This document shows, piece after piece, positions 4,574 to 37,697 of a DNA stretch of 37,981 nt. The position numbers were made by a program, and so were the translations under genes. Source of the DNA: Catajapyx aquilonaris (taxonomy: Eukaryota); contig JYFJ02003751.1 in assembly GCA_000934665.2 (NCBI GenBank), positions 1 through 37,981 on the forward strand, read 5' to 3'. The notes beneath the pieces were generated by a model. The model did not search any database and had not been told where the DNA came from. It worked only from the letters and a program-made list of their open reading frames with translations. Numbering within the stretch: the stretch's first letter is position 1; each line of letters opens with the position of its first letter.

Positions 4574-6590
4574 TTAGTCAACTTCCTCCACAGTTGGCCC
4601 CTTTCCACTTGGGTACCCCCCACTGTAGGGTGTTCCTCCAGGGACGTCGCCCTGTCCAGCATCAGCACCAGGCCCAGAACCAGCTCCGTACAGTTTGCTC
4701 ATGATTGGCTGGCAGATCTGCTGCACCTCCTTCATGCGGTCCTCTAGCTCATCCTTCTCGGCCAGGTTGTTGCTGTCCAACCACTTGATGGTCTCTTCAC
4801 ATTTGTCCATCACAGGCTTCTTCTCGTCATCGGACAGCTTCTTGTCCTCCTCCAGGGCCGACTTCACTCCAAACAGGTATGACTCCAGCTTGTTGCGAAC
4901 CTCGATCTTCTCCCTCTGCTTGTCATCCTCAGCCTTGTACTTCTCAGCATCAGCCAGCATGCGATCAATCTCTTCCTTGGACAGGCGACCCTTGTCATTG
5001 CTGATGGTGATGGCATGAGACTTGCCAGAGCTCTCCTCCTTGGCGCTGACGTTCATTATCCCGTTAGCGTCCACGTCAAAAGTGACTTCAATCTTTGGGA
5101 CACCACGTGGAGCTGGTGGGATTCCAGACAGGTCAAATTTGCCCATAAGATTATTGTCTCTCGTCATGGCCCTCTCGCCCTCGTACACCTGGATGGATAC
5201 AGCGGACTGATTGTCGCTGTAGGTGGTGAATGTCTGTGAGTGCTTGCATGGGATGCGGGTGTTTCTCGGGATGATCTTGGTCATGATACCTCCAGCTGTC
5301 TCAATCCCGAGGCTCAGTGGTGTCACATCCACCAGCAGGACGTCCTGGATCTGCTCAGACTTCTCTCCAGACAGGATGGCAGCCTGTACTGCTGCTCCAT
5401 ATGCCACTGCCTCGTCTGGGTTGATGCTCTTGTTCAGCTCCTTGCCATGGAAGAAGTCCTGCAGGAGCTTCTGGACCTTTGGTATGCGAGTGGACCCACC
5501 AACCAGCACCACATCGTGTATCTGTCCCTTGTCCAGCTTGGCATCGTTGAGGGCTCTCTCCACTGGGGTCATGGTGGACCGGAACAGGTCACCACACAGC
5601 TCTTCGAAACGTGCCCTGGAGATCTTGCTGTAGTAGTCAATGCCCTCGTGCAAGGCGTCCACTTCGATGGTGGCCTCGCTGCTGGAGCTAAGGGTACGCT
5701 TGGCCCTCTCACAGGCTGTGCGCAGCCTCCTGAGTGCCCTTTTGTTCACACTCAGGTCCTTCTTGTACTTCCTCTTGAACTCCTCCAGGAAGTGGCTCAC
5801 CATCCTGTTGTCAAAGTCCTCACCCCCAAGATGTGTGTCACCTGCAGTTGATCGCACCTCAAAGAGCGAGCCTTCATCCACCGTCAGTACGGACACATCA
5901 AAGGTTCCTCCGCCCAGGTCGAAGATGAGGACGTTTCTCTCGCCCTTCAGGTTCTGGTCCAGCCCATAGGCAAGGGCTGCGGCTGTAGGCTCATTGATGA
6001 TGCGGAGGACGTTCAGCCCAGCGATGATCCCTGCATCTTTGGTGGCCTGACGTTGCGAGTCATTAAAGTAGGCTGGGACTGTGACGACTGCATCGGTGAC
6101 TTTCTGACCCAGGAAGGCTTCTGCCGTCTCCTTCATCTTGACCAGCACCATGGAGCTGATTTCCTCTGGACTCAACCGCTTCCTCTCCCCCTTGAACTCC
6201 ACATCCACCATTGGCTTGTTGTTCTCACCACCCAACACCTTGAACGGCCAATGCTTCATGTCGTCCTGGATCTTGGGGTCATCATAGCGGCGGCCTATGA
6301 GTCTCTTTGCATCAAATACCGTGTTGCTCGGGTTCATAGCCACCTGATAATGAGACATGGAATGTTAGGTGTGCTCATGGCGTCATGCTAACCATATGCT
6401 AGTCGAGTCTTACCTGATTCTTAGCTGCGTCTCCCACCAGCCTCTCTGTGTCCGTGAATGCGACGTACGAAGGGGTGGTCCTGTTCCCCTGGTCGTTTGC
6501 GATGATCTCGACCTTCCCATGCTGCCACACTCCAACACACGAGTAGGTCGTCCCCAAGTCTATCCCAATAGCCGGCGCCTTTCCCACCAT
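4574..6590 (-). CDS. Hsp70: Cytosolic heat shock protein 70, likely inducible type; exons 6590-6414 and 6343-4574, about 648 aa
   Basis: Signatures [20 protein letters not shown] and [13 protein letters not shown]-terminal GPTVEEVD; 70-bp phase-0 intron at AAKNQ|VAMN; upstream HSEs; AATAAA on - at 4482-4487. Confidence 0.97.
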
Positions 6591-7030: not shown

Positions 7031-7306
7031 GCACACGTAATCGATAGGCGACGTGGCAACACTGTAGATTGGCTTCTCCCCGGTACGACGTCATACAATT
7101 TGGCCAAAAAACACGTGTGATATTCGTGTGCAAAGTGTCCGCCAATTTTTTATATTATTTTAGCGGACTGATTACACCGGGTGCTGTCGGTCAGACCGTG
7201 CAGGTAATGTTCGGTGGTACTTGGCAGGGGGAATAGTAGTGAAGCATATGGTACGGCAAGCCACATATGTTGGGACTAATGTGTTTGCTTTTACAGGTCA
7301 CCCAAG

Positions 7307-8602
7307 ATGGCAGCGGCTGTTCCGCTCTTCCGTGATCTGTCAGCGGATGACCCGGAGACCACTGAGGTCGAGAGCATGTGCATGCAGTGCGGGGAGAACG
7401 GGACGACTCGCCTGCTGCTTACCAAAATTCCATTCTACCGAGAGGTTATTCTCACCTCATTTTCCTGCCCGCACTGCCACCATTCCGACAACCACATACA
7501 GCCAGGAGGGCCCATACAGGCACGTGGGGTTGTTATCCGGCTGAAGGTGACCGCCAAGGATGATCTGAACCGACAGGTGGTCAGGTCGGATCAGGCCTCC
7601 ATCTCCATTCCTGAACTGGATTTTGAAGCGGAGACGCATGCGGAACAAAAGGGTGAAGTGACCACGGTTGAAGGTGTGTTGGAGAGGGCCAAGGTGGGAT
7701 TGAACCAAGGGCAGGCCATAAGGCGAATTGTGGATGTGGAAGCAGCCGAGAAGATAGATCAATTTTTGGAGCGCCTGCAGGCCGCCATTGATGGGAAGCT
7801 GGAGTTTACACTTGTCATTCGGGATATTGCTGGAAACAGCTGGGTGGAAAATCCTAAAGCACCTCAGCCTGACTCGGCAATTGAAACGTCGCATTTTGCA
7901 CGCTCTGCTGAGGAGGATACGCGTCTAGGGCTGTTCCGAAACAATGGCGAGGTTGAGCCAGACGCTGGCGATGCAGACCTGCGCAATGAGGTTCTGAAAT
8001 TTGCAACCAATTGTCCGCAATGCAATGCTCCATGTGAAACCAACATGAAGCTAACTGCTATACCTCACTTCAAAGAAGTGGTCATAATGGCTACCAACTG
8101 CGACGCATGTGGACATCGAACCAATGAAGTCAAGCCAGGAGGAAGCATAGAAACAACTGGAGTGCGGATAGCACTAAAAGTGATGCACAAACGTGACTGG
8201 AATCGTGACGTGTTAGCTTCTGACACATGTCACGTGCGCATCCCTGAACTGGACTTTGAAGGTGGAGGTGGGTCTCTGGGTGGTCGCTTCACCACACTTG
8301 AAGGACTCTTGGAAACCATCAAGGACAATCTGGTGAGGGACAACCCAATGCTAGTGGGAGACGCTGTCAGCCCTAACATCCAGGAAAGGCTGGACGGTTT
8401 CGTGCACAAGATTGACCAGGCCATAGCTGGTCAAATAAGGATCACTGTTGTGCTGGATGACCCAGCTGGTAATAGCTATCTTCAAAACCTGAATTTTCCA
8501 GACAACGATCCTGAGATGGAGGTGACCCACTACGAACGCAGTCATGAGCAAAATGAGGAACTTGGACTGAATGATGTGCGTGTTGAAGGTTATCAGTTGT
8601 GA
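7307..8602 (+). CDS. ZPR1: Zinc finger protein ZPR1; single coding exon, probable 5'UTR intron 7204-7296
   Basis: Two C4 zinc fingers each followed by an A/B domain (ESMCMQCGENGTTRLLLTKIPFYREV...CPHC; TNCPQC...IPHFKEVVIMATNCDACG), plus FTTLEGLL and LDDPAGNSYLQN motifs. Confidence 0.96.
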   Translation: MAAAVPLFRDLSADDPETTEVESMCMQCGENGTTRLLLTKIPFYREVILTSFSCPHCHHSDNHIQPGGPIQARGVVIRLKVTAKDDLNRQVVRSDQASISIPELDFEAETHAEQKGEVTTVEGVLERAKVGLNQGQAIRRIVDVEAAEKIDQFLERLQAAIDGKLEFTLVIRDIAGNSWVENPKAPQPDSAIETSHFARSAEEDTRLGLFRNNGEVEPDAGDADLRNEVLKFATNCPQCNAPCETNMKLTAIPHFKEVVIMATNCDACGHRTNEVKPGGSIETTGVRIALKVMHKRDWNRDVLASDTCHVRIPELDFEGGGGSLGGRFTTLEGLLETIKDNLVRDNPMLVGDAVSPNIQERLDGFVHKIDQAIAGQIRITVVLDDPAGNSYLQNLNFPDNDPEMEVTHYERSHEQNEELGLNDVRVEGYQL

Positions 8603-9388
8603 CTTTCAGGCATATTATACACACCAGGCCAGTAAAAAAAATTATCTGAAATTCAAATGTGACTTGACCAACATTACTGTGGATATAACGCACAGGAAGT
8701 TGCATTGTGAAAATAAATGCATGAAGTGGTACCTCATGTTTCTATTCTACATTGGAAAATATATTTCAGGCATATCAGGCCTTATTAACCTACTGCGAGA
8801 CCACTACAGTACGTATGCAATCATGCCAGACTATGTACCATCTTCATAAGGTAGGTCAATGCATGTTTGCACAAAGAAAAGGGAAGTTGGATTTTAAATT
8901 CCATCATCTTTATTCTGCATAATTATGTCAATCCAATAGGAATGTTGACTCAAACTATGCATGATCCACAAGTCTGAATATTGTGTTTAGTACCTATTCT
9001 TGGCCAAGTTCAAGAGCTTTCACATGGCTGGAAGCCCTATCTAAAAACAAAAAGGGCAAAATGTTCAACATGCTCACAACATAATTGGGAATTACACGAG
9101 GAAGTCATTCTTCCTCGCCCTCACATATTTGCCAACAGATCTCATGATGCATCTATAATAAAAATAATGATGCTGGTCTCCATCCTAGCTTCCATCACTT
9201 ACAAGCATGATTTAAGTGAGACTACTTTTTATACCTCACAGAGGTGAGCTTAACATCTGGGAGAGAATGAGGGCTCTAAACTACTCTAACGTGAAATCCC
9301 CCTCCTCTCCCAGTTCTTGTACAGTACAATCAGAGTATTTCTGGCCGAGTTGCACAAGGGGAATGTTCAGGTACAGTGTTAAGACATA

Positions 9389-13935: not shown

Positions 13936-16900
13936 TTAAGTGATGTTGCCATGCTCGGAGCGTTTTGTCTGCTCTTCCCACATGCTGGTGTAAAATCCTC
14001 TACGCTTCAACAATGCCTCGTGATTCCCACGTTCTATTATAATGCCATCTCTTAGCACCAGGATCTCATCAGCATGGACAACTGTTGACAACCGATGTGC
14101 TATCACTATAGTCGTACAGTTCTGAAGAACCTTTTCCAGCGTTTCCTGTATATTCCTCTCTGTGTGACTGTCCAGGGCACTTGTTGCCTCATCCAAGAGT
14201 ACAAATGCCGGTGATTTTATGAGGGTGCGGGCAATTGCAACACGCTGCTTCTCACCTCCACTTAGTTTCAATCCACGCTCGCCAACCTGTGTGTTATACC
14301 CATCTTCCAATGATGCTATGGTGTCGTGTATCTCAGCACGCTTTGCTGCTTCAATCACATCTCCTTCGGTTGCATCATTACGCCCGTAGAGTATGTTGTA
14401 TCGGATGCTGTTGTTGTACAACACTGTGTCCTGTGGTACAATTCCAAGAGATTTGCGAAGAGACTCCTGAGTGACATCCCGAATGTCCTGGCCGTCTATC
14501 AATATACACCCCTCCCACACGTCATAAAACCTGAACAGCAGTCGTAAAATGGTTGACTTTCCACTTCCAGATGGCCCCACAAGTGCAATGGTTGCACCTG
14601 GATTGGCTACAAATGACACCCTGGACAATGTCTCATGCTCTGGGGTGTACCCAAATGATACATCTTGAAACTCAATCTTCCCTTGCAGAACATGCAGCTC
14701 TGGGGCATCATCTTTGTCTTTCACTTCAGGTTCCTTTTTGAATAGTTCAAACAGATTCTCCATATCAATGAGGTTCTTTTGCAAGGTCCGGTAATATGAC
14801 CCAAATGATGCTAATGGTGCATACAGCTGGTTGATGTAGGCCACAAACAGGACGTAGTCGCCCAAAGTCAGCTCACGATCCACGACCATAGACACGCACA
14901 GGAGGGAGCCGGCTAGAAGGCCTGAGTTGATAATCACATTCTGGGCCACGTTGAACAAGATGATGGCCACATTCAGCTTCCACTCCTCTGCCTGATCAGT
15001 GCAAAGTAAAGATGTGTTTACATGTGCGCGATTTGTTCGCGGCGATGCATCGCCAGCGGTAACATCACTGTGTAACCAAAGACACCAGTATTGTTTGAGG
15101 CGAAAATAGATTGTTACTTTCGCCCCAAACAATTGGATACATCGCTGCGAACAAATCGCTCACATTACAAATTGGGTTCATATTACAAACCAATATTTTC
15201 TGTCCACTTTACCTGGTATTTCCTTATAACATCATTGTAGTGCTTGACCTCGTTTTTCTCCTGTGCGTAGTACTTGACAGTCTCAAAGTTGAGAAGTGAA
15301 TCCACTGCCTGCGCCTGCTGCTCATTGTCTGCTTGGTTCATCTTTCTCCGGAATTTGGTCCGCCATTCCGTCAGGTATATGGTTGCCACTAAAATCAAAA
15401 GTGTTGACCTATAAAATGATGCATGTTTTTGAGCCAGCCAACGGGTCACTGGAGAGAACAAAACTCACCCACAAATATGACAATGGTGAGGACAACAATG
15501 ACCCCAAACCAGGCATTGAAGGCTGCAGAGAAATACACCACAGCAATGACAAAGTCTGCAATAGATGGCAGTATATTGAAAAGGACATAGTTGAGAAGGG
15601 TGTTGATGCTCTCCGTGCCACGGTCCACAGCCCTGAGGACCTCCCCTGTCTTACGCTGCAAGTGCCAGCGGACACTCAGACTATGTAGGTGGGAAAAGAA
15701 TTTCACCTGCAATTGAGAGAAATGTCAATGATTGTCACATTAACTCTGAGTATCCTGCATTAATACAGAGTAACTCCTACTGATAAAGGCATACAGGGTA
15801 GCATAGTTTTGAGGAAGTAGTTGGATCAGATGTATGTTCCACCAATTATTTACTCTTGGTTCCACGCATTATCCAGATTGCCCAGTAGCTGCCAGTAGAA
15901 GGAGTGATTTAAAAGGCAGTAGGCCTATTACAAAATACCTGCACTTCTCTTTCCGTGTACTGTTGCACTCGAATCCACAGGAAGCTCCTGATGTTCCCCA
16001 GGATTCCGGACCTGGCAACACCACCTTGAACTAGTCGCAACCCAACGTAACTCACAACCAAGTCCCATCTAAATCGAATGGGGGTGTTGTTCTCATCACC
16101 AGATATGCTGTCCACTGCAAAAATAATGCATAGTTAGTTGCATTAAAACTGTGAAATAATGAAATAATGGCATGCTTAACAGACTAAATTAGAATTCACA
16201 ATGTTAATCTTGGCATTAATTACACGGATGCCAGTTTTGGAATCAGCGCCACAGATATACCCTAAAATTGGTCTAACCTTCAAGGTACCTAAAGATCAGG
16301 ATGAGCAATATTATTGTCCCAGGTTTCAACATCTATTTAAATTACATACCTATCTTCTTGCTGTAGATAGGAACAAATAGATTCACAACTCTTTCTGCAG
16401 CTACACATAAGAAGTATCCAACAACACGCAGCTGCAGCCACGTTTCCTTCTTCGGCCAGATGAATGGAGAGAGAATCTTCACCTTTGCTCCCAAATTATT
16501 CCATGGTGATCTTGTTATGCTCCTCCTGGACTCAGTTCTGTTGGTGAGCAACATCTAGAAGGTTGACATGCTATCATCACAATGCAAACTGTCCACTATA
16601 ATTACTAGACAAGAAAGTAATAAGTGTACTTCTTGTGTTCTCTGACTGTCAGTAGGATGTATCTTCGGCTGCGATATTCCTGGTGCATAAAACCCAAGTG
16701 CAAGCACCAATAATGTTGCCACATATCGGAAGCAGAATATTGCAAGTTCAGCCTTGTCTGAAATACTAACGGAATTATAGTACAACTCACAAGTGCAGCA
16801 GTGCTTATTAACAGTGGCAAAGTGTGGCATGAATTTAGGTTCCACATGAGGCAAAAATGCAGGCATAAAGATAAGTTGATAATAATTATTATCATTTACT

Positions 16901-17607
16901 ATTAATTTGACCAAATTTAACAGTAATATGATACAATGAAGACCCATGTATAATATTTAAAACTATTCAAATAGCATCATGTCATCTAGTTCGAGTAGAA
17001 GCACAAGCAGACCACAAATTACCGTTTTAATAGGCCTACCAGCTAACACACTCTTTGCCTCTGCTTTCACAAAATAGGTTTACATTTAGCATTTATTATA
17101 CCTCTTAAGAGCAAACCATGAATGTTCAGAAGCTGTAGTCAGGAAGTACAGATTCTCCTTGATAGCCATCCAGCTCCAAAATGTAAGCAACAATGCACTG
17201 TGTCCCGTCCTTTGCCTGCGATGTAAATCATCTCTGCTGTTTCTTGTCTCTATCCCAATGAGTGGCACTGTCATCATCCAAGACATGATGTTCAAGGCCA
17301 TGGCCAGCACCACGTACCCCTGCACTCCTCCCTCCAAAACAGTGCTTCGGAGCACAAGGTGAAGCACTCCGAGCAACGGAATCAGAGCTATCAGAGCCAA
17401 CTGCAGTCGAAACAGCGACTTTGACTTGTGGACCAGATTTTCTCTGACCAACCCGGCACTGAGCGCATGCAGCGTAATCTGCACCAACCCAAATCCAACC
17501 ATGTAAGCACATCCCACCGCATTGCTAACAGTCTCCAGGAAACAAACTGACAACCCAGATTCATGCCATACAGCATGAAAGTTATCATATTCCGGGCAGT
17601 ACCGCAT
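13936..17607 (-). CDS. ABCB6: ABCB6/HMT1-like half ABC transporter, paralog A; exons 17607-17102, 16765-16630, 16554-16350, 16114-15939, 15706-15469, 15388-15213, 14991-13936
   Basis: N-terminal TMD0 (MRYCP...), [22 protein letters not shown], Walker [10 protein letters not shown], signature LSGGEKQR, Walker [11 protein letters not shown]. Confidence 0.9.
15022..15165. mobile_element. MITE in the last intron of ABCB6-A
   Basis: 30-bp TIRs: ATGTGCGCGATTTGTTCGCGGCGATGCATC and GATACATCGCTGCGAACAAATCGCTCACAT (3 mismatches), flanked by a direct TAC repeat. Inner hairpin TTGTTTGAGGCGAAA/TTTCGCCCCAAACAA. Confidence 0.8.
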
Positions 17608-17675
17608 ACTTCTGAAATAAATAGTACATTAATTATATTATTATATTATTATGCAACATACTGTATTATATTATA

Positions 17676-17779: not shown

Positions 17780-19076
17780 CATTGTATTGTATTATATTAC
17801 AATATATTATTGCGCCAACTAGAAAAAAAAGTAGTTACATGTCAACGGTAGCTTATGTGGCTGTATGGAACAAAAGTGTTACGTGTATAATAAGCAAGCA
17901 ACAACGAATAAACCATGCGTAGATGTCACTGTCAGTCCCTTTATTAACCGTAGTCACCCAAACATATGGCCTATGGCGTTGTTTTTGTCACTGTAGATCT
18001 GTTCATCTGTTGCCATGTGCAGTACAGTACCAACCTTTTTCACTCATTATTTCGATTCATTTATATACACACTCACCTATAGTATATGAGCCGCTGTTAG
18101 AGAGTGCAGTCCAGCACACAGAACGGTCGTCCCAACAGTGTTCCAAGGGGCCAGACGGATCCAACGCAGCCGTCAGACCGCATGTAACTAGCTCATTATC
18201 GCAATCAGATCACGTAATGCCAATCCATACGATCTACTCACGTTTCGTACCTTCCCCCCACCACTAGGATGAAATCAACGTAGCAGCTTTCAACCACCGA
18301 ATTTAACTTTTTAAAACTAATTTGTGCTCCAAACCCATTCCAATAATAATTCGCGCAATGATTTAAATATGACAAGAGCTAATAACGAGTATTTCAGATT
18401 AAGATCGGCAGGCATGAAATGGCATGAATGAACACTTTTTTTCTTCTTCTTCATTCGCAATCGGCCGGCGATTTATAGCACGTGCGGTTCTTTATTTCTG
18501 CGAATTAAATTCAACCAGAGTGGTCAAGGATATGTGACCACATCACGAGGAAGGAAATAAGCCAAGAACATATACTATCAAATACTATATAGTCGACAGA
18601 ACTTGTTTACTGAGGATGTGCTCCACTTGAGCTGGTTTTGAGGAAAAGGTGGATTGCGCTGGATTGCGCTTACAAAATATTGTTATTTGGTTGGCAGCAT
18701 CTTCTGGCCCAACATTTGGACATATCCGCTTGGCCTGTGAATTTATAATAAGTGGCGGTGGGTTGCAAGTACACTAAAAAGACGGACTACAATAATAATA
18801 CACTGTAGTATGACCCTGGGGCTGCCCAGATATTAAATTCCATATTTTCAAGTGTAGATCAAAGGATGATAATAATAATGGGCATGCCTAATATAATGTA
18901 CAGTACCGGTATATAATATTATCCTCTTTGACAGATGAGCTGCCATATGGAGTAATTTACATGTGAAACGGAATAGTGTATTGTGTTGCTACAAAAGATA
19001 TGGTTATGCATTGAAGCAAAGTTCAATATCGATGAACCTTTCTTCAAATCATTAGGGTGCCAGTACCTGAAACACA

Positions 19077-22000
19077 ATGAGATTCTGCCCAGCAAATGGG
19101 ACCATTGGCCAGTTTTGGGTGGACCATGGACTTACCCACTGCGCTGCGGACACTCTCCTGACGTCACTTGCGTGCGGCTTCCTCCTGCTCTTTGGGACTG
19201 CGGAATGGGTGGTGTACAGCAAGTACGGCACCCCTCTGGTGTCCTACGTGAGGCGAACTTCGTGTCTGTTTGTGACCCAGTGCGTCCTTATCCTCACCAT
19301 GGCCGGCCTGGATGTGGCCAGATTCACGGTAGAGGCTGTGGTTTTTGGAGAGAGAACACTGTATGGGTACATGCTGATGTGTGGGATCATGTCGTGCGTC
19401 ATGTGGGGCCTCAGTCTGGGCCTGGTGTCACTGGAGAGGAACTTCATGTTGCCCAGCACACCCACTCAAGGACATGGTGTGATCCTGCTAGTCTTCTGGA
19501 CTCTTACATTTATCAAAGAGAATCTTGCATTTCTCAGCTGGGGAAGTGAGAACTGGTGGTTTGGGATGCAAAGGTAAGAATTCCAGAAACCACCATTGCA
19601 CTTTTTTTTTCCTTTCAAGTTTCAACTGATGCATAACCTTTTGCAGTGCTGTCCTTTTACTGCAACCTTAATGTTCTCTTAGGCTATAGCAACCTTTTCG
19701 CACCCGCGACCCCCCAAATCATCTAAAATTTCTCCATGGCCCCCTTGCAAAAGTAACATACATAAATCTTTAATGAAGCAGCCAAACAATACAAGAAATA
19801 TATTTACCAAATATGGTACAATGCCTCTCACGGCCCCCTTGGGGGGCCACGACTCCCAGGTTGGGAACCCCTGGTCTATAGATAACATAAAAACTGCAAA
19901 GGTTTATATGTGTTTTAAGCACAGTAACTTACATGTAACTGTTGAATATTGTGTTGAATGAGGGGAGACAGGTTAGGAGTGTTGTTTCTGGCCGTGTTGC
20001 CTGATCTGCTTGCAATCTGTCAGTGTGCGTGATGCTATCTTATCATTTAAGCTATATACTCACAAGAGACTATAATATTTACATAAATAGATGGTTGTGG
20101 AATAAAATGTACATCATTACTTCAGTTGTAACCATCTGCTGCTAATAAATCTAAGTGTTTTAATTGTTTAATTCATTTGTAGCACATCGGACAAGGTGGA
20201 GTTTGGCCTTTTTGTTGCCCGTTACATCTCTACTTTTGGTATTTTTGTCCTGGGCTTGAAGGCACCAGGAATACCCCAAGTACATGACTACCGAGATGAA
20301 GAGAGGGCAGAGGTAAGTACAACATGTTCGCATTTTTCACCTACATGTTTTATCAATTTCACCTGATCCTCCATGCATGCCCTCCTTATATTATCTAGAT
20401 CTCCAAAGGGCTAAGAGGAAGAATATCCCTAAATATTTTGACTAATCCTGTACTTCTTTTTTTTTTTGCTGTCAGCCACTTCGAGGAGCTGTTGCCCAAG
20501 GGTCCACATTTAGGAACTTCTGGGAGAAGCTGAAGACATTGCTTCCATTTATATGGCCAAAAGGAGACACATGCTTGCAAGTGCAGGTCTTGTCCTGCTT
20601 GGGATTACTCGTAGTGGGACGCGTGGCCAATGTGTATGTCCCCATCTACTACAAGCTCATAGGTCAGGTTTGATTACAAATTCCTTGTCATGTATGACAT
20701 TAGGGAGCTTTTGCCCTTGCCGTACCTGGCCTGTGAAACTAAAATGCTTTTTTTTTTTTTCATTTTAGTTGACAGCTTGACCCCAGACAAAAGTGGACAT
20801 ATGCTCTATCGATGGGACTACGTGCTGATATACGTAGGCATCAAGTTCTTGCAGGGTGGTGGTGCAGGCACTACTGGACTTCTCAACAACCTGCGGTCCT
20901 TCATGTGGATCAGGATACAGCAGTACACAACCAGGGAAACTCAAGTCCAGTTTTTTGCTCATTTGCATGGACTGAGCCTGCGGTGGCACCTTGGAAGGAA
21001 GACTGGGGAGGTTCTTCGAATAATTGACCGGGGCACTGCCAGCATCAATACGCTTCTGAGCTATATTATCTTCACTATTGCTCCAACCATTGCTGATATC
21101 ATTATTGCCGTAGTGTATTTCACTACAGCATTCAATGCTTGGTTTGGACTCATTGTGTTTGTCACCATGTTTCTGTATTTGGGTAAGATCACTTTTGTAA
21201 TGTAAATTTTATTTTGTGTTTACAACACATTTTGTCCACACAGGTGCGACCATATTTGTGACAGAGTGGAGGACAAAATATCGGCGCTCTATGAACCAGA
21301 CTGACAATGAGCAGAGGGCCATAAGTGTGGATTCCATACTTAATTTTGAGACTGTCAAATACTATGGAGCAGAGGATTACGAGGTGGATCGTTACCGGAC
21401 TGCAGTGACGAATTACCAGGCAGAGGAGTGGAAATCAAATGCCTCCCTTAACATCCTCAACACTGTTCAGAATGCCATAGTCACTGGTGGATTACTAGTA
21501 GGTTCCTTGCTGTGTGTCCATATGGTTGCAGTAACCCGGAACCTCACTGTTGGAGATTACGTGCTCTTTGCCACTTACATTATGCAGTTATATGGACCTC
21601 TCAACTTTTTTGGAACTTATTACAGGTACTAATATCTCATAAAGTGAATGTTAAAAGTGTGTTTCCAAGTTCACGAGAGTCAGCCTTAGCGATAGTATGA
21701 GCAAGAGCAAGAAGCAAATTCTCAAGTCCTATTCGTCCAATAATCACTTCTCACTCAATCCAAATACGTTGTGAATTCACTCCAAACCTCTCATTCTTGC
21801 AAGCTTGGCAATACACCTTTATCCAAGGGACCTATTCATGATGAGATGATTTTGTGTCCCATAGTCAGTTCTCCTGTGTCAAGTAACCTTACTTGCTTCT
21901 CCTCACCCTATTTTTCCTCCTCGTACCTGTCTCGAGCTTGACAATTCCTGTTTTCAATACCTGTTTCAATATTTGTTTTCCCATACAACAGGATGATCCA

Positions 22001-23364
22001 GCAAAACTTCATTGACATGGAGAACATGCTTGACCTGTTTAAGGAAGAGCAGGAAGTGAAAGATTCCCCAGGTGCCACACCATTAAGAATTCAGGATGGC
22101 CAGATTGAATTCAAGAACGTTGATTTTTCTTACCACCCGGACAAGCCAGTGCTGAAGAATGTGTCCTTCTTTGTGCCTCCTGGAAAAACATGTGCCATTG
22201 TACGTATCTTATTGTGTTGAATTCCAAATGCCTGACAAATCAAAAAAAGGAAGTGAATACAATGTGTATATGCTACATTCTGCAGTTGTGACAATAATAG
22301 TTTTTCTTCAGGTGGGTCCATCAGGAAGTGGGAAGAGCACCATAATCCGGCTACTATTTCGGTTTTATGATCTCCAAAAGGGGGATATCCTCCTTGATGA
22401 TCAGAACATAAGGTATCTGAAGCAAGACTCAGTCAGACAGGCCATTGGAGTTGTGCCTCAAGACACTGTCTTGTTCAATGAAACCATTCAGTAAGTAGAA
22501 CAAATCACTGATGTCCCATCATGGCCATAAAGATAAAGGTAACTCATGTGTGAAGGTTCTGAGTGGACTGGAATTTTGCTGTAGATCTAATTTGAATATG
22601 CAAGTGGTGGGTTTTTGTGACATGAGTTTTCCTCATCTTTTGGCTGCAATGGTTCTGCACTTTTAATGAGCTATCATGCAGATGAAATTATCCACATTTA
22701 TAATCTGCAGCTATAACATCAAATACGGGCGAGTGACAGCTTCAGAAGCTGAAGTTGAAGAAGCTGCTCAGTACGCTGACATCCATGACAAGATTATAGG
22801 CTTTCCTGATGGATACAAAACAATAGTATGGCATTGTACATATTGTAAAATAGGAGTAAGTGATAGAAAATAGACTTTCAAAGTCAATTTTGCTTCACAG
22901 GTTGGTGAGCGAGGCCTGAAATTAAGTGGAGGTGAGAAACAGCGGGTGGCCATTGCACGCACCCTTCTCAAAAATCCTGCCTACATCCTCCTGGATGAAG
23001 CCACCAGTGCACTGGACACACAGACTGAGAGAAATATCCAAGCTTCCCTCAACAGCATATGTGCCAACAAGACCACCATTATTGTGGCTCACCGGTTGTC
23101 CACAATCATCCATGCAGATCAGATAATGGTTCTAAAAGATGGAGAAATTATAGAACGTGGAAGGTAAGGCAGAGTAAGGGATCTTCACAATTAGCACACC
23201 TTATTATGACACATTGCTTTCTCAGGCATCAAGACCTTCTACAGCTTGGAGGGACCTACTCTGCAATGTGGGAGCAGCAGTTAAGAAATGACAAGGATGA
23301 GAAGAGTTCTCCACTGAATTCAATAGAAGAAGTCATGGATGGAGGCGAAACTAGACATCCGTGA
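19077..23364 (+). CDS. ABCB6: ABCB6/HMT1-like half ABC transporter, paralog B; exons 19077-19573, 20183-20312, 20476-20662, 20769-21182, 21244-21625, 21992-22199, 22312-22490, 22711-22825, 22901-23163, 23226-23364
   Basis: MRFCP... TMD0, [39 protein letters not shown] and [14 protein letters not shown] introns with consistent phases. Confidence 0.93.
19681..19873. mobile_element. Degenerate hAT (Charlie-like) non-autonomous element in ABCB6-B intron 1
   Basis: Right end GGTTGGGAACCCCTG is a typical hAT TIR. Left end is degenerate (CAACCTTTT...CGCGACCCCC) and mirrored by the subterminal GGGGGGCC. Confidence 0.55.
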
Positions 23365-27278: not shown

Positions 27279-28478
27279 CTAGTTCCTCTTTAGCCTCCTC
27301 CACATCCTCTGACACCAAACCATCACTGAAAGCCACACAATCTCAAGGTTTCTTCGGTACCAGAGCTGACTGTATTCCGCATGCACATTGTGCATAGAGT
27401 TTGAAAACTTCTTGAAAAAGTCCGCCATCTCATCAGCAGTCAGTGTGCTACACTTCACTTTGCCATCCGGATATTTCTCCCTGAGACATTGCTGTACAAA
27501 GGCATCCCTCTCTATTCGGTGGATCATGTTATGCTGGTACCAGTACTCCTGGTTCCACCTCTGGACGGATTCTTTCTTCTCCCTGCAGCATCTTTCTAAG
27601 GCTGTCTCATTCTCCGGAATACAGAAGATCACAGGATGCAGGTTGCTAATGGGATTTACTGGGCCGATCCAGTCATTCTTGAGTTTTGGAAGGCCCAGTT
27701 GGAGAATCCCTCTATCTGTACTAAATCGCTGTGAAGAAAACAAAAGCTGTTTTAACAGTTGGAACAGTAGGAAGCAGCAGTTATGTCCAACTTGCAACTC
27801 CTTGCCATGAGTATAACCAGGGTATAACTCCCTTCTTTCCATATTTATTAATAAATGGTGTTAACGGTAGGTACTCTTCAACAGCATTGTTTTGCAAGTA
27901 TTATTTCTTGATTTTCATGACAAATAAGAGTATTGATCATCCTCCTTCCCTAGATCATCAATGATTCTAGCCTAGGATTCTTGGGCATGCTCAGTCGTAG
28001 TTCTCAGCAATTTTGGGCACTTCCATGTGTACGAACAGCAATATTCCTAGACTAAAATTATGTGACATGTATGCACAATACTTTATGTATAATCAGTGTG
28101 CACACTGGCCATATGCTGCCAGAATCAAATTACTGTTAGATTGTTCTATTCAACATCCGCCCTTGACGAATTACATAACCCCACCTTGGCCTGCTCTTCT
28201 TTTGGGACACTGTCTCCTTCTGGGAACCTGGTCCTCCGCATGACGGCCAGCTGCGTGTAGATCCTGGCCATCTCCTGGTCCTCCTTTTCCATCCCAACCG
28301 GCCCCTTGCCCTCTTTACCACCGCTTTCCTCCACGTCCAAGTCCAGCTGCATGACCACGGGAGGAGGCTTGAGCGTCTCCACCGCTACCTTCTGCGCTGT
28401 GGCCGAGCACCGTCTGGCAGCCCCCATCCCGCCGTACCCGTGGGGCAAGCGGAACACACGGACGGGAACGGCGTACAT
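27279..28478 (-). CDS. COA8: Cytochrome c oxidase assembly factor 8 / APOPT1; exons 28478-28185 and 27728-27279
   Basis: DWIGPVNPISNLHPVIFCIPENETALE...WNQEYW...LTADEMADFFKKF...WYRRN matches the APOPT1 family. Exon 1 begins with an Arg-rich presequence-like segment. Phase-0 intron. Confidence 0.88.
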
Positions 28479-30435: not shown

Positions 30436-32712
30436 ATGGAGCCAGAGCATCAAAAGGCTATAAATGATAATCTCCAGATTTTGGTTGAGAAGACCAACTT
30501 TGAGTCTCTGTCCAAAATGCTTGTGGTGTATGGAATCATTACAAGAGAAACCCGGCGTCGTATTAATTCGGTCAGTAGAAAATCGCACGATATCATTATG
30601 ATTGGCACAACAGACCTGTAACTATTTCCATAGCCTGAGTCACTGTGCTATCTAAGGTTATCTATTATTTCGATAATCAGAACAATGACGTACGTGTTAT
30701 CAGAGACCAGTTGGCGGAACCAACAGGAAAATATATTTCTTAATGGAATTTATATTCTTTCACTGCTAACTTATCTCCGCATGCAAGCCATAATAGTAAT
30801 AGCATGTTACCCAGATGTTACCTTCTCAGTAATGAAAACGATACTCTGTATATGTCCAGATGTTGTTTCTTTAATGTACATATTATATTGCATCATCATT
30901 TTCACTCGTGAATTTCAGCTTAATGACAACAATAAACCAATGTTATGTTGATGCACTTTTATTTTTCAGGAAAATCCCAGCATCGGTGCGAAGAATCGTG
31001 CTTTGTACAAGCATATTCAAACCATCCCTTCAGCATTCAAAAAATTGATTGATTCATTGCTTGAAACTAACCAGAATGAATTAGCTGGACTGATTGGAAA
31101 GTATGAATATTTCCTCTCATATAAACATCAACTCCAATTAAAGATCGAGCTGTATGATAGTGGTTGCACTTTCTTTCCCAGGATTGATGTCAAATGTGCG
31201 CTAGATTGTGCTCAGAAGGGCAGCAGTGACGAAGATCCTCTGGTGATCATCGTGAAAAAAGCAGAGATGCACAAGGGGCCCAGCAACTCTGAGGTAACTC
31301 CCCTTCTGTTACATTTGTTTATCAGATTTCGGTGTATACATAAGGGAATCGTAATTTTACCTATTACAGTCATACAAGATGGGTTCCAATCCAAAGGGAA
31401 ACGCTTTAATAATCAACAACATAGACTTTATACCAGAGTTACATTTGTTGAAGAGGGATGGGGCAGAGGTCGATGGGAACAATATGAGGTCCTTGTTGGC
31501 TGGCCTGGGATATAGGGTTCAGTATCATGAGAACTGTGATCAAATGGTATGTAGTATTTTATGATTTTCAAGGAAAAACACTAAACCTATAGTTCACCAC
31601 CCTATTTGAAATAATAAAATCCACTTAAACCTGCAGGCAATGAGGAATCAAATTGTCAAATTTTCTGAAATGGAGGAGCACAAAGACGTTGACTCAGCTA
31701 TAATTGTAATCATGTCCCATGGCACAAAGGACGTGTTCTACTCAACTGATAGCAAAGAAATCCGTGAAGCATGGGTACTATCCCAATTCAACAATGTCCG
31801 ATGCCCAGCTCTTCTGGGCAAACCCAAAATTTTCTTCTTTCAAGCATGCAGGTACTGTGTTAGTACAAGTATGTATTATTTTGCAGCCTACCAATAAATT
31901 AACAAATTATTTAATAATTAATTCAGTTAAGTTAGAAGTTAATAAAGAAACATCGCATGCTTCTCTGTCATGTCACTGTAAGAAAACATTTCAGGGGAGA
32001 TGAAGAGGATTTAGGACATCGGTATGGATCAGATGGCCATTCCCAGGAACCAAAATCAAACACACAACCTGAAGCACTTGATGTCACTTGCTCAGACATG
32101 TATGTGGTTCGCTCAACAGTCTCAGGTAAAGATGTTCATATATGTAAGGTGAATTCACATGCTACCATAAGAGATGTTGAGCATTACAAGTGATTTGGGA
32201 TGGGAAGCTGTTTCACACTCTGACTTCACTCTGTCCTGCAAACATGACAAACACGTACAAGCCTATACGACCCAAACTCCTCATTTAAATGCCACCTTTA
32301 TGATATATGTATAAGCAACATTCAACTGGTACCGCATTACAATATTAATGTGTCTATATAAGAGTAATAATCTATTTAGATTAATGTATATTTATCTCTC
32401 TTTTTACAGGATATGTCTCCATTCGGGACCATATACGAGGAAGCTGGTTTATAGAAGTTTTATGTGTGGTTTTTATGGAGTGGGCCTGTAAGAAACACCT
32501 GGAGGCACTGATACGCAAAGTGAGCAGAGAGAATCGTACTGTCATAATTTATTGTCTAATAAGGTACAGTAATCCTAGCTTTATTTTTCATTTAGGCCCA
32601 GCAGAGAATAGCACGCATGACAGACGGGGTTGGACGTAAACAAATGCTTTCTGGGGAGACTGTGGGAATGATGTACAAGGTATATTTTAATCCTGACTCA
32701 TATGATGATTGA
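30436..32712 (+). CDS. Initiator-type caspase with CARD-like prodomain (Dronc/caspase-2/9-like); exons 30436-30570, 30970-31100, 31182-31293, 31370-31546, 31637-31851, 31995-32125, 32410-32519, 32596-32712
   Basis: PKGNALIINN, RDGAEVD, IMSHG, KPKIFFFQACR|G, GYVSIRD..RGSWFI. The N-terminal about 90 aa (MEPEHQKAINDNLQILVEK...AFKKLIDSLLETNQNELAGLI) has a CARD-like pattern. Confidence 0.9.
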
Positions 32713-35421: not shown

Positions 35422-37697
35422 ATGGCAAGACGCCAAGAACACTTGGATGACGAGAGAACCTTGTATGCTGCCGTTGCTCACGGACACTTGGGCATTGTAG
35501 AAAAACTTTTGCAAGATGGTATGGATGTGAACATGCGAAACAACAACTATGAGACACCTTTGATCATCGCTGCTCGTGCAGGTAATGCTGCAATGTGCAA
35601 GTTTCTCATTGAAAACGGTACCAGCATCAATAACCAGTCAAATGATGGGATGGATGCTTTACACGAATCTGCAAGAAATGGATGGGTAGAAATATGCCGA
35701 CTTCTCTTGGCCAACGGAGCAAATGTGGACAGTCGAGATAATAGAGCCAACACGCCTTTGCACTTGGCAGCACAATCAGGAAAACTAGAAGTGATCAAAT
35801 TGTTGTTGCAGCGCCAAGCAGATCTTCTTTCATATAATGATGAAGGTCATACTCCCCTCAGTCTGTCAATTTTGCATGACCATGCTGAAACAGCATTCTA
35901 CCTGCTAGACTTTGCATCCAAGCAACAAAGGTAAGTGTCCACATTAACTTAGAAAGAACTGATTCATTAGGTCTATTTGTTTATGGGCCAGTTAAGCCCT
36001 GGTGTAATGCCAATGTAAGCACCATATTAATTTATTCCAGTAAAGGGAGAGCTGGAGCATGCCCTAGCTTGACTGCATTTGTTTATTTCAGTCATTACGT
36101 CATTTATGTCATTACAATGTCCTACACACTGACTGCCCAATAAACAAATGGACCTATTACTTGCAATCATCGTTGTCCAATACATAGTCATCTCTACACA
36201 CAGTTTCCTTTTGCTTATTTTGCATGGTGTGGATCTATGGTGATATGAATAAAATTACCCACAATAAGCGAGGTTGTATCAACTGGAGAAATACACCTTG
36301 AAGCTGACGGGGTTTCAAGAACCACAGTTACACGTCCTCGTACAGCAGGCACTGAGGTACAATAATTATTGTGGTATAGTATGCATTGAACATTTAAAAT
36401 GACTGTCTTTCCCATTTCACAGGAAGTTTATCAGATGCAATCTAATCCAAAAGGATTTGCTCTTGTTATAAACAACATTAATTTCACACCTTTCTCTGGT
36501 TTAAAGGAGCGAAAAGGAGCAAAAGTTGATGGGGAAAACATTAGTGAGCTGTTAAAGTATATGAATTACGAAGTGGAATACCATGAGAACTGCACTCGAC
36601 AAGTGAGTGTAATCATAATTTTAACTGCGTACAGTTGAATGAAAGGGATTTTAATTCCGCATTATTTCGCATATTAGGACATGGTAGATATACTCATAGC
36701 GTTTTCTAACAAGAACCATACTCAAGTGGACTCAGCAATAATTGTGATAATGAGCCATGGTAATAAGGATGTCTTTTACTCAACGGATGGTTGGGTGGTA
36801 GCTGATTCTTTTGTATTCTGGTGTTTAAACAATAGTCAATGTCCAACACTGAGGGAAAAGCCCAAAATTTTTATATTTCAGGCATGCAGGTTAGTTGAAT
36901 TAAATTATTTCTTATTCCTGATGAAATAAGTAATCCTTAATTATGAATTTCATTTCCATGTTACATATCAAAGGGGTGACAAAGGTGATTATGGCTCAAA
37001 AGGTACTGATTCTGCAAAGAGCAGTGTCACAGATCAACATCCAGCTTACGACAATGTTACCCATTCTGACATGTATATTGCACGCTCAACCATACCAGGT
37101 GACGTTATGGGTTCTCCTCCTGAACATTGAATTTGGTCCACAGTTATATTGGGTGGGTTTTTATCCTACTGGTGAAGTTAGCAGTACTTAGCACCCATGG
37201 GATAGCTTGTAGGAAAGTGCACATTAGCAGTCGTGTCCTGCATGATGAATAATAACACCTAGACTTCTTGGAAACAAGACTTGTTTTTCTCATTCGGATT
37301 TTTTGGTGTTTGTGTGGTGCATTTTTTTATGCTTCATATGACATCACCTTAAACTTCACAGCTGCATAAATTCTACCGCATTCAAGTAATTTACAACAGC
37401 TGACCATTTCTCTACTGTGCAGGGTATGTTTCCTTCCTCGATGAAGAAAGCGGTAGCTGGTTTGTGGAAGAAATATGTGCAGTATTCAGAGAATTGGCTC
37501 ATGAAGAGGACCTGGAATCTATGATGAAAAAAGTCAGTAAAAGGGGTTTTTATTATTGAAAAGACACTAATGATGTTCTCCTTTTCCAGGTGATGAAGAG
37601 AGTTGCTTCTAGGAGTGATGAATGGGGTCAGAAGCAAACAGTAGCAGGAGAAAGCTATGGACTAATGTATAAGGTCTATTTTAACTTGCACCCATAA
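35422..37697 (+). CDS. Caspase with predicted N-terminal ankyrin repeats; exons 35422-35930, 36269-36356, 36423-36602, 36678-36889, 36974-37098, 37423-37532, 37590-37697
   Basis: Exon 1 has about 5 ankyrin repeats (TLYAAVAHGH, TPLIIAARAGN, ALHESARNGW, TPLHLAAQSGK, TPLSLSILHDH) and ends at a strong donor AG|GTAAGT. Downstream are PKGFALVINN, RKGAKVD, IMSHG, KPKIFIFQACR|G and GSWFV. The linker exon 36269-36356 is phase-compatible but has a weak acceptor. Confidence 0.8.

Follow-up and report, generated by a model that had tools for sequence, protein, structure and literature searches.

Two tandem caspase genes

The window, which is the whole stretch of 37,981 nucleotides of Catajapyx aquilonaris DNA analyzed here, contains two caspase genes that are intact, lie head-to-tail and have GT-AG introns in the exon models. 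Gene A, the tandem paralog (30436..32712, + strand), has 8 exons encoding 375 aa, with a CARD-like prodomain and a canonical caspase domain. Its N-terminus scored 55.6 bits on a CARD-region profile, the best of 200 shuffles reaching 5.2, and Pfam CARD gave no match on its two exon pieces. Gene B (35422-37697, + strand) has 7 exons, with GT-AG introns and no internal stops in the exon models, and encodes 443 aa comprising ankyrin repeats and a caspase domain. The caspase domains of A and B are 53% identical, and, starting with the linker exon, the introns of the two genes agree in position and phase.

All exons of gene B lie on the + strand. Exon 1 (35422..35930) contains the start codon and an ankyrin-repeat prodomain with 4 Pfam Ank stretches, and ends in a phase-2 donor; this N-terminus gave no match to the CARD-region profile, and ankyrin repeats stand there instead, joined to the caspase domain. 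Exon 2 (36269..36356) encodes the prodomain-p20 linker, in which LEAD/G is a possible Asp cleavage site. The large subunit starts in exon 3 (36423..36602) with the S1 residue Arg179 (RKGAKVD) and continues in exon 4 (36678..36889) with the catalytic His (SHG), Gln283 and the catalytic Cys (QACR). Exon 5 (36974..37098) encodes the intersubunit linker, with Asp sites KGTD/S and SVTD/Q predicted from the sequence, and the start of the small subunit. The substrate loop of the small subunit, GYVSFLDEESGSWF, is the translation of 37423-37465 in exon 6 (37423..37532), where a Leu codon, CTC (37437..37439, +), occupies the position of Arg341. Exon 7 (37590..37697) encodes the last helix, the terminal strand, which we take from caspase structures to be the dimer strand, and the stop codon. 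The terminal strands of the two genes are near-identical (GLMYKVYFN in B and GMMYKVYFN in A), which would permit heterodimers.

The His-Cys dyad of gene B is complete, in SHG and QACxG, and with both catalytic residues present the gene does not have the character of a pseudo-caspase. Arg179 and Gln283 of the S1 pocket are both present, and Gly238, Ser339, Ser347 and Trp348 are also intact; the S1/S3 residue Arg341 is Leu. Judged by these motifs, gene B is a caspase homolog by descent, and it was not filed as a canonical Asp-ase (C14A).

Sequence support for the Leu codon

The preliminary description of this DNA had reported a Leu in place of Arg in the small-subunit motif, an Arg codon CGG at 32424 in the paralog, and intact RKGAKVD, SHG and QACRG motifs. 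All of this was borne out: translation and gapless alignments gave Leu from CTC at 37437, the CGG codon lies in gene A, and the three motifs are intact in gene B. The numbering was likewise correct, as the Leu aligns without gaps with the Arg in WRDPKSGSW of caspase-9 and in HRDLDTGSW of Dronc.

The reads were checked for CGC as a sign of sequence error, and none was found: X1, X2 and X4 showed 0 differences, and X5 showed 0 other letters over 37420-37532. X1, X2 and X4 are DNA runs from one sample, possibly the source of the assembly, so they are not independent. X5 comes from a different sample and a different study; none of the runs is registered as RNA, and X5, whose record does not give its kind, was judged RNA-like from spliced contigs with GT..AG joints. 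The agreement of the two samples rules out a sequence error at the Leu codon.

X5 contigs contain five GT..AG joints, four of which fit the gene B model, either as they stand or once the listed shift is applied, the fifth being one base off, within a one-letter ambiguity. These joints link exon 1 to exon 2 and exons 3-7 to one another. Exon 1 is covered by X5 contigs and joined there to exon 2 by the joint 35927-36266 (GT..AG); the exon 2-3 junction and 36358-36516 had no cover among the X5 pieces listed, beyond which there are 246 further pieces. Gene B is expressed. One low-depth X5 contig has G>T at window position 36309, in the linker exon, which may be an error.

Frequency of Arg341 replacement

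When two outside sets are pooled, 222 of 229 caspase domains have Arg341. The first set, composed of 150 profile-search representatives and one earlier match, has Arg in 108 of the 114 domains that cover the site; among the 78 in which His, Cys, Arg179 and Gln283 are all intact, Arg341 occurs in 75, and the other three have K, L and an E whose alignment is doubtful. In the second set, mostly vertebrate caspase-2, 114 of 115 proteins have Arg341.

A family search of the genome gave 53 exon-level matches, from which 24 gene models or fragments were aligned. Site 341 is covered by 23 of these models, which may include alleles or broken copies: 18 have Arg, 3 have Leu (gene B, C1781a and C1781b), 1 has Thr (C1350b) and 1 has Lys (C4528b). 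Thus 5 of 23 models replace Arg341, and the 3 Leu represent two separate origins. Neither the 229 outside domains nor the 23 genome models have Cys, Trp or His at the site. The replacement is rare, not unique, and recurrent in arthropod caspases; it is less singular than the preliminary description implied, being found again both in this genome and in other arthropods. P0084/P0185 and P0193, CARD caspases of a myriapod-like type, have Leu or Asn in place of Arg341 and otherwise intact sites. Published natural replacements of Arg341 include two mussel caspases (PMC3037946) and mouse caspase-12, which is described as Arg341Lys (PMC11121540).

The acidic loop noted after the Leu is present, and part of it is inherited, since Asp342 is common to gene A and Dronc; Asp is the commonest residue at 342 (33 of 90 outside domains). 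The four residues that follow the Leu, 342-345, sum to a net charge of -3, a value reached in 2 of 206 outside domains.

The literature searched contained neither a measured activity of any natural Leu341 variant nor usable kinetics of Arg341 mutants. The available text of PMC13587975 reports R207A only for drug binding, and that of PMC4357240 has nothing on the Arg341 residue.

Ancestry of gene B

A maximum-likelihood tree was built from 28 caspase domains, 19 from the genome (C3298 and fragments were left out) and 9 from outside; the 341 column was kept in the tree alignments. The sister of gene B is another ankyrin-caspase, located on contig C75 (L034:5334-7328; support 99/95), and gene A joins next (99/95). 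The three belong to a six-gene clade of the same genome (99/96) on the Dronc/caspase-2-like side (100/99), and a 57-row quick tree gave the same grouping for gene B. A grouping of A and B alone as sisters was rejected weakly (p-AU 0.028, for a group named after the tree had been seen). The C75 gene repeats the exon layout of gene B and, largely, the terminal strand; it keeps Arg341 and has Glu for Gln283, GHG for SHG and Cys for Ser347. As gene A, C75 and C1350a all have CGN Arg codons at 341, gene B lost Arg341 after its split from C75.

The adjacency of A and B is due to tandem duplication. The preliminary description had proposed a paired system of gene B with the adjacent caspase, which found no support, as the sister of gene B is the C75 gene; within 30 kb around the latter there is no caspase other than C75 itself.

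C1781a and C1781b (L036:4294-5454 and 7558-8755) are tandem, effector-like genes that both have Leu341, the second also having Glu at Gln283. They group together in an effector-like expansion (100/98), and a single clade of gene B with C1781a/b, as expected if the Leu motif had one origin or had been transferred between them, was rejected (p-AU 1.9e-5). P0084 stands apart, its partner in the tree being a Strigamia caspase with Asn (90/69). Therefore, as read from the trees, Leu341 arose at least three times, in gene B, in C1781a/b and in P0084. Leu341 with an intact dyad persists across the deep C1781a/b duplication and also occurs in P0084. C1350b (L032:5315-6514), the middle of three CARD caspases, has Lys/Asn/Thr at the three S1 sites with an intact dyad; C4528b has K341, and C972 is a broken member of the family.

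The nearest named relatives of gene B are arthropod caspases, and its best outside matches have about 33-39% identity. Two ankyrin-containing outside matches, P0017 and P0060, were set aside as Macrostomum kinase-caspase-ankyrin proteins and not orthologs. A profile search over 1.84 billion representatives found no protein above about 55% exon identity to gene B, and a single-exon ortholog search gave 1 weak match among 5 candidates. Elsewhere in the genome, C1587 (L050:2095-3339) is one long, uninterrupted open frame that encodes a Peptidase_C14 domain, whose motifs look to us paracaspase (MALT1)-like.

Constraint on gene B

Gene B is intact and constrained, not decaying. Of the 28 columns that show conservation in 80% or more of 90 outside domains, those domains themselves keep 22-28, gene B 25, gene A 26, the C75 sister 24 and C1350b, which was called degenerate, 19. 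The three misses of gene B are a clade-wide Lys, a Phe-to-Leu change and Arg341. Between gene B and its sister, pN was 0.30 and pS 0.67, with dS near saturation there and saturated against gene A. Unique changes numbered 15 in gene B and 28 in the sister (p 0.066), or 16 and 31 (p 0.04); the comparison with gene A, 30 in B and 21 in A, was not significant (p 0.26). These ratios and rate counts are whole-branch averages and cannot date the Leu substitution. Pseudogene decay was rejected: there is no frameshift, stop or splice defect, and the conserved columns and relative rates are contrary to it.

Origin of the ankyrin exon

The ankyrin exon of gene B has its best genomic match, at 46%, on C3354 (L051:3578-5243), where a putative ankyrin-kinase gene begins with an ankyrin exon of the same intron phase. 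At least 131 related ankyrin stretches occur in the genome (E<=1e-15), and the ESM Atlas returned generic ankyrin clusters only. A phase-2 donor ends the ankyrin exon in C3354, B and C75, and the same phase ends the CARD exons of gene A; these shared exon ends would fit exon shuffling.

Relation to known systems

The catalytic domain of gene B groups among Dronc/caspase-2-like CARD caspases, such as Hetaerina caspase Dronc (XP_071439415.1), an Anabrus caspase (XP_066998340.1) and a Tachypleus caspase-2-like protein. The best solved-structure matches were caspase-2 for the p20 exon profile, and caspase-9 and Dronc for the p10 exon. Unlike Dronc, gene B has ankyrin repeats in place of a CARD and Leu at 341.

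ANK caspases were reported in 2024 from parasitic flatworms and one annelid, where they are sister to DED caspases, and were not observed in ecdysozoans (PMC11463336). They resemble gene B in having an ankyrin prodomain on a caspase domain, but differ in this affinity to DED caspases, as gene B falls within a clade of CARD caspases from the same genome. Descent from the DED-related flatworm clade was thereby not borne out, by the indirect evidence of a tree without a flatworm ANK caspase, and the ANK-caspase architecture of gene B probably had an independent origin. We found no arthropod ANK caspase in the literature, which was searched by title and abstract start.

By analogy, rodent caspase-12 would be the system whose working most resembles that of gene B. 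It is also a paralog from a tandem cluster with the same pocket residue replaced. The Lys of mouse caspase-12 keeps the charge, whereas the Leu of gene B removes it, and caspase-12 is a mammalian CARD inflammatory caspase. Rat caspase-12 is described as autoprocessing, with a proposed regulator role, in a review that also predicts caspase-12 to be non-functional (PMC11121540).

Like gene B, cFLIP-L and Aedes CASPS18 are initiator-type caspase duplicates that could heterodimerize with a paralog; decoy caspases derived from duplications, including CASPS18, are described in Diptera (PMC3141678). cFLIP has lost its catalytic residues (PMC11121540) and gene B keeps them all, so the defining trait of the cFLIP-like regulator that had been suggested is absent. 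Strigamia maritima T1J672 (P0193, Asn341) and P0084 (Leu341) share with gene B the intact His, Cys, Arg179 and Gln283, but have a CARD prodomain and belong to a separate clade.

Proposed activity of gene B and competing readings

We take Arg314/310 of caspase-4/11 to be the residue numbered Arg341 here. Arg179, Arg341 and Gln283 are described as lining S1, with Arg341 binding the P3 backbone and a P3 Glu (PMC12550167, PMC10088814). The role first ascribed to it, binding of the P1 Asp and the backbone, therefore agrees with an S1 formed with Arg179 and Gln283 and with a tether to P3 (PMC12550167). Covalent modification of this Arg is reported to block autoprocessing and substrate cleavage in caspase-4/11 (PMC8936426, PMC11598138), and the same Arg, in the caspase-7 peptide RSPGRGSWF, is modified by bacterial effectors (PMC9239266).

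Because gene B keeps the dyad, Arg179, Gln283, Ser339, Ser347, Trp348 and the linker Asp sites, we tentatively favor, with somewhat less than even confidence, a protease that is still Asp-directed but weakened and narrowed, with the ankyrin domain bringing in its targets. Altered specificity or low activity, as first suggested, is thus a sound deduction from the sequence of a gene that is intact, expressed and constrained. Gene B would be an ankyrin-prodomain offshoot of the genome's own expansion of Dronc/caspase-2-like CARD caspases, in which Arg341 became Leu after the split from the ankyrin sister, possibly by a single base change. Its activity, substrates and ankyrin-domain role can be inferred as follows. 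Dimerization or recruitment would occur through the ankyrin repeats, with processing at the Asp sites of the linker, and Arg179, Gln283 and Ser347 would form a smaller basic pocket that accepts P1 Asp with much lower efficiency. With Leu at 341, the P3-Glu contact would be gone and a single positive charge left where there had been two, and the main-chain contact could stay; the S3 preference for Glu would be lost, and the acidic loop may favor neutral or basic P3/P4 residues. The targets of gene B would then be itself, or one or a few substrates tethered by the ankyrin repeats, comparable to rodent caspase-12, and it would not be a general apoptotic initiator. Counting against an Asp-directed protease, Arg341 is near-invariant and its modification blocking, which means that Leu may abolish the activity of gene B, and the substitution could fall anywhere on the gene B branch, of length 0.48, so that the intact dyad may reflect lag and not selection.

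Since modification of Arg341 blocks cleavage, a close rival is that gene B is silent and serves, like cFLIP or CASPS18, as a decoy or allosteric partner of gene A or another paralog, placed by its ankyrin repeats. We regard this as credible but on the unlikely side. It would account for the loss of a near-invariant residue whose modification inactivates caspases and for a terminal strand near-identical to that of gene A; cleavage in trans could occur at the Asp sites of the linker, and dipteran decoy caspases from duplications provide a precedent (PMC3141678). It does not explain why His, Cys, Gly238, Arg179 and Gln283 are retained in B, unlike in cFLIP, and the neighboring position of gene A carries no weight here, as it is explained by descent and the sister lies on another contig.

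That gene B is active with a preference for a non-Asp P1, as part of a pocket-diversifying radiation, appears improbable. Arg179 and Gln283 are unchanged, no compensating change in the pocket was seen, and the acidic residues lie at 342-344, which from caspase structures presumably point toward S3/S4, and not at the S1 floor. What makes the idea worth weighing is that intact paralogs do differ in the pocket (Q283E in C75 and C1781b, K/N/T in C1350b and K341 in C4528b), that Leu341 has at least three origins, that the loop of gene B is unusually acidic, and that the P1 specificity of clan CD is described as plastic (PMC11121540). About equally doubtful is the broader proposal that Arg341-to-Leu, whose three or more origins all left the dyad and Arg179 intact, is a repeatedly selected switch, yielding an active, re-tuned class of caspases without the Arg hit by bacterial ADP-riboxanases; gene B, with its shuffled ankyrin exon common to an ankyrin-kinase gene, could then be an immune sensor-protease.

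That gene B is a redundant duplicate just beginning to decay, with Arg341 lost recently and almost neutrally, is very unlikely. CGC to CTC is one transversion, and the family is large and redundant with broken members such as C972; yet the same letter occurs in two samples, there is no frameshift, stop or splice defect, gene B evolves more slowly than its sister, and Leu recurs at a site where no Cys, Trp or His is found. Least probable of all is a near-normal Asp-specific initiator in which Arg179 suffices and residue 341 tethers P3 by its backbone: the P3 contact is described as main-chain (PMC10088814, PMC12550167) and Leu could keep it, but an Arg that could be dispensed with would not have persisted in 222 of the 229 domains from outside.

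The Asp specificity of caspases is ascribed to three fixed residues, among them Arg341. Gene B, its C75 sister, with Arg341 kept and Gln283 changed to Glu, and gene A form a natural set for dissecting the pocket residues and for asking whether an animal caspase can change its specificity. If gene B is simply inactive, it is one more decoy caspase and carries less weight. The ankyrin prodomain adds to the significance of gene B, the 2024 report having observed none in ecdysozoans (PMC11463336).

Other features of the window

Intronless open frames for Hsp70 (4574-6364, - strand) and ZPR1 (7280-8602, + strand) lie head to head. Two divergent ABC half-transporter genes with ABC_tran and ABC_membrane domains, which we take to be ABCB6/HMT-1-like, extend over about 13936-17628 (- strand) and 19071-23364 (+ strand). 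The contig end (37804-37981) is a high-copy repeat with a depth in the thousands, compared with about 30 for single-copy sequence. Just upstream of the caspase pair, at 27279-27860 (- strand), is a frame for the cytochrome c oxidase assembly factor COA8, presumably the same as APOPT1, and its proximity to the caspase pair is probably coincidental.
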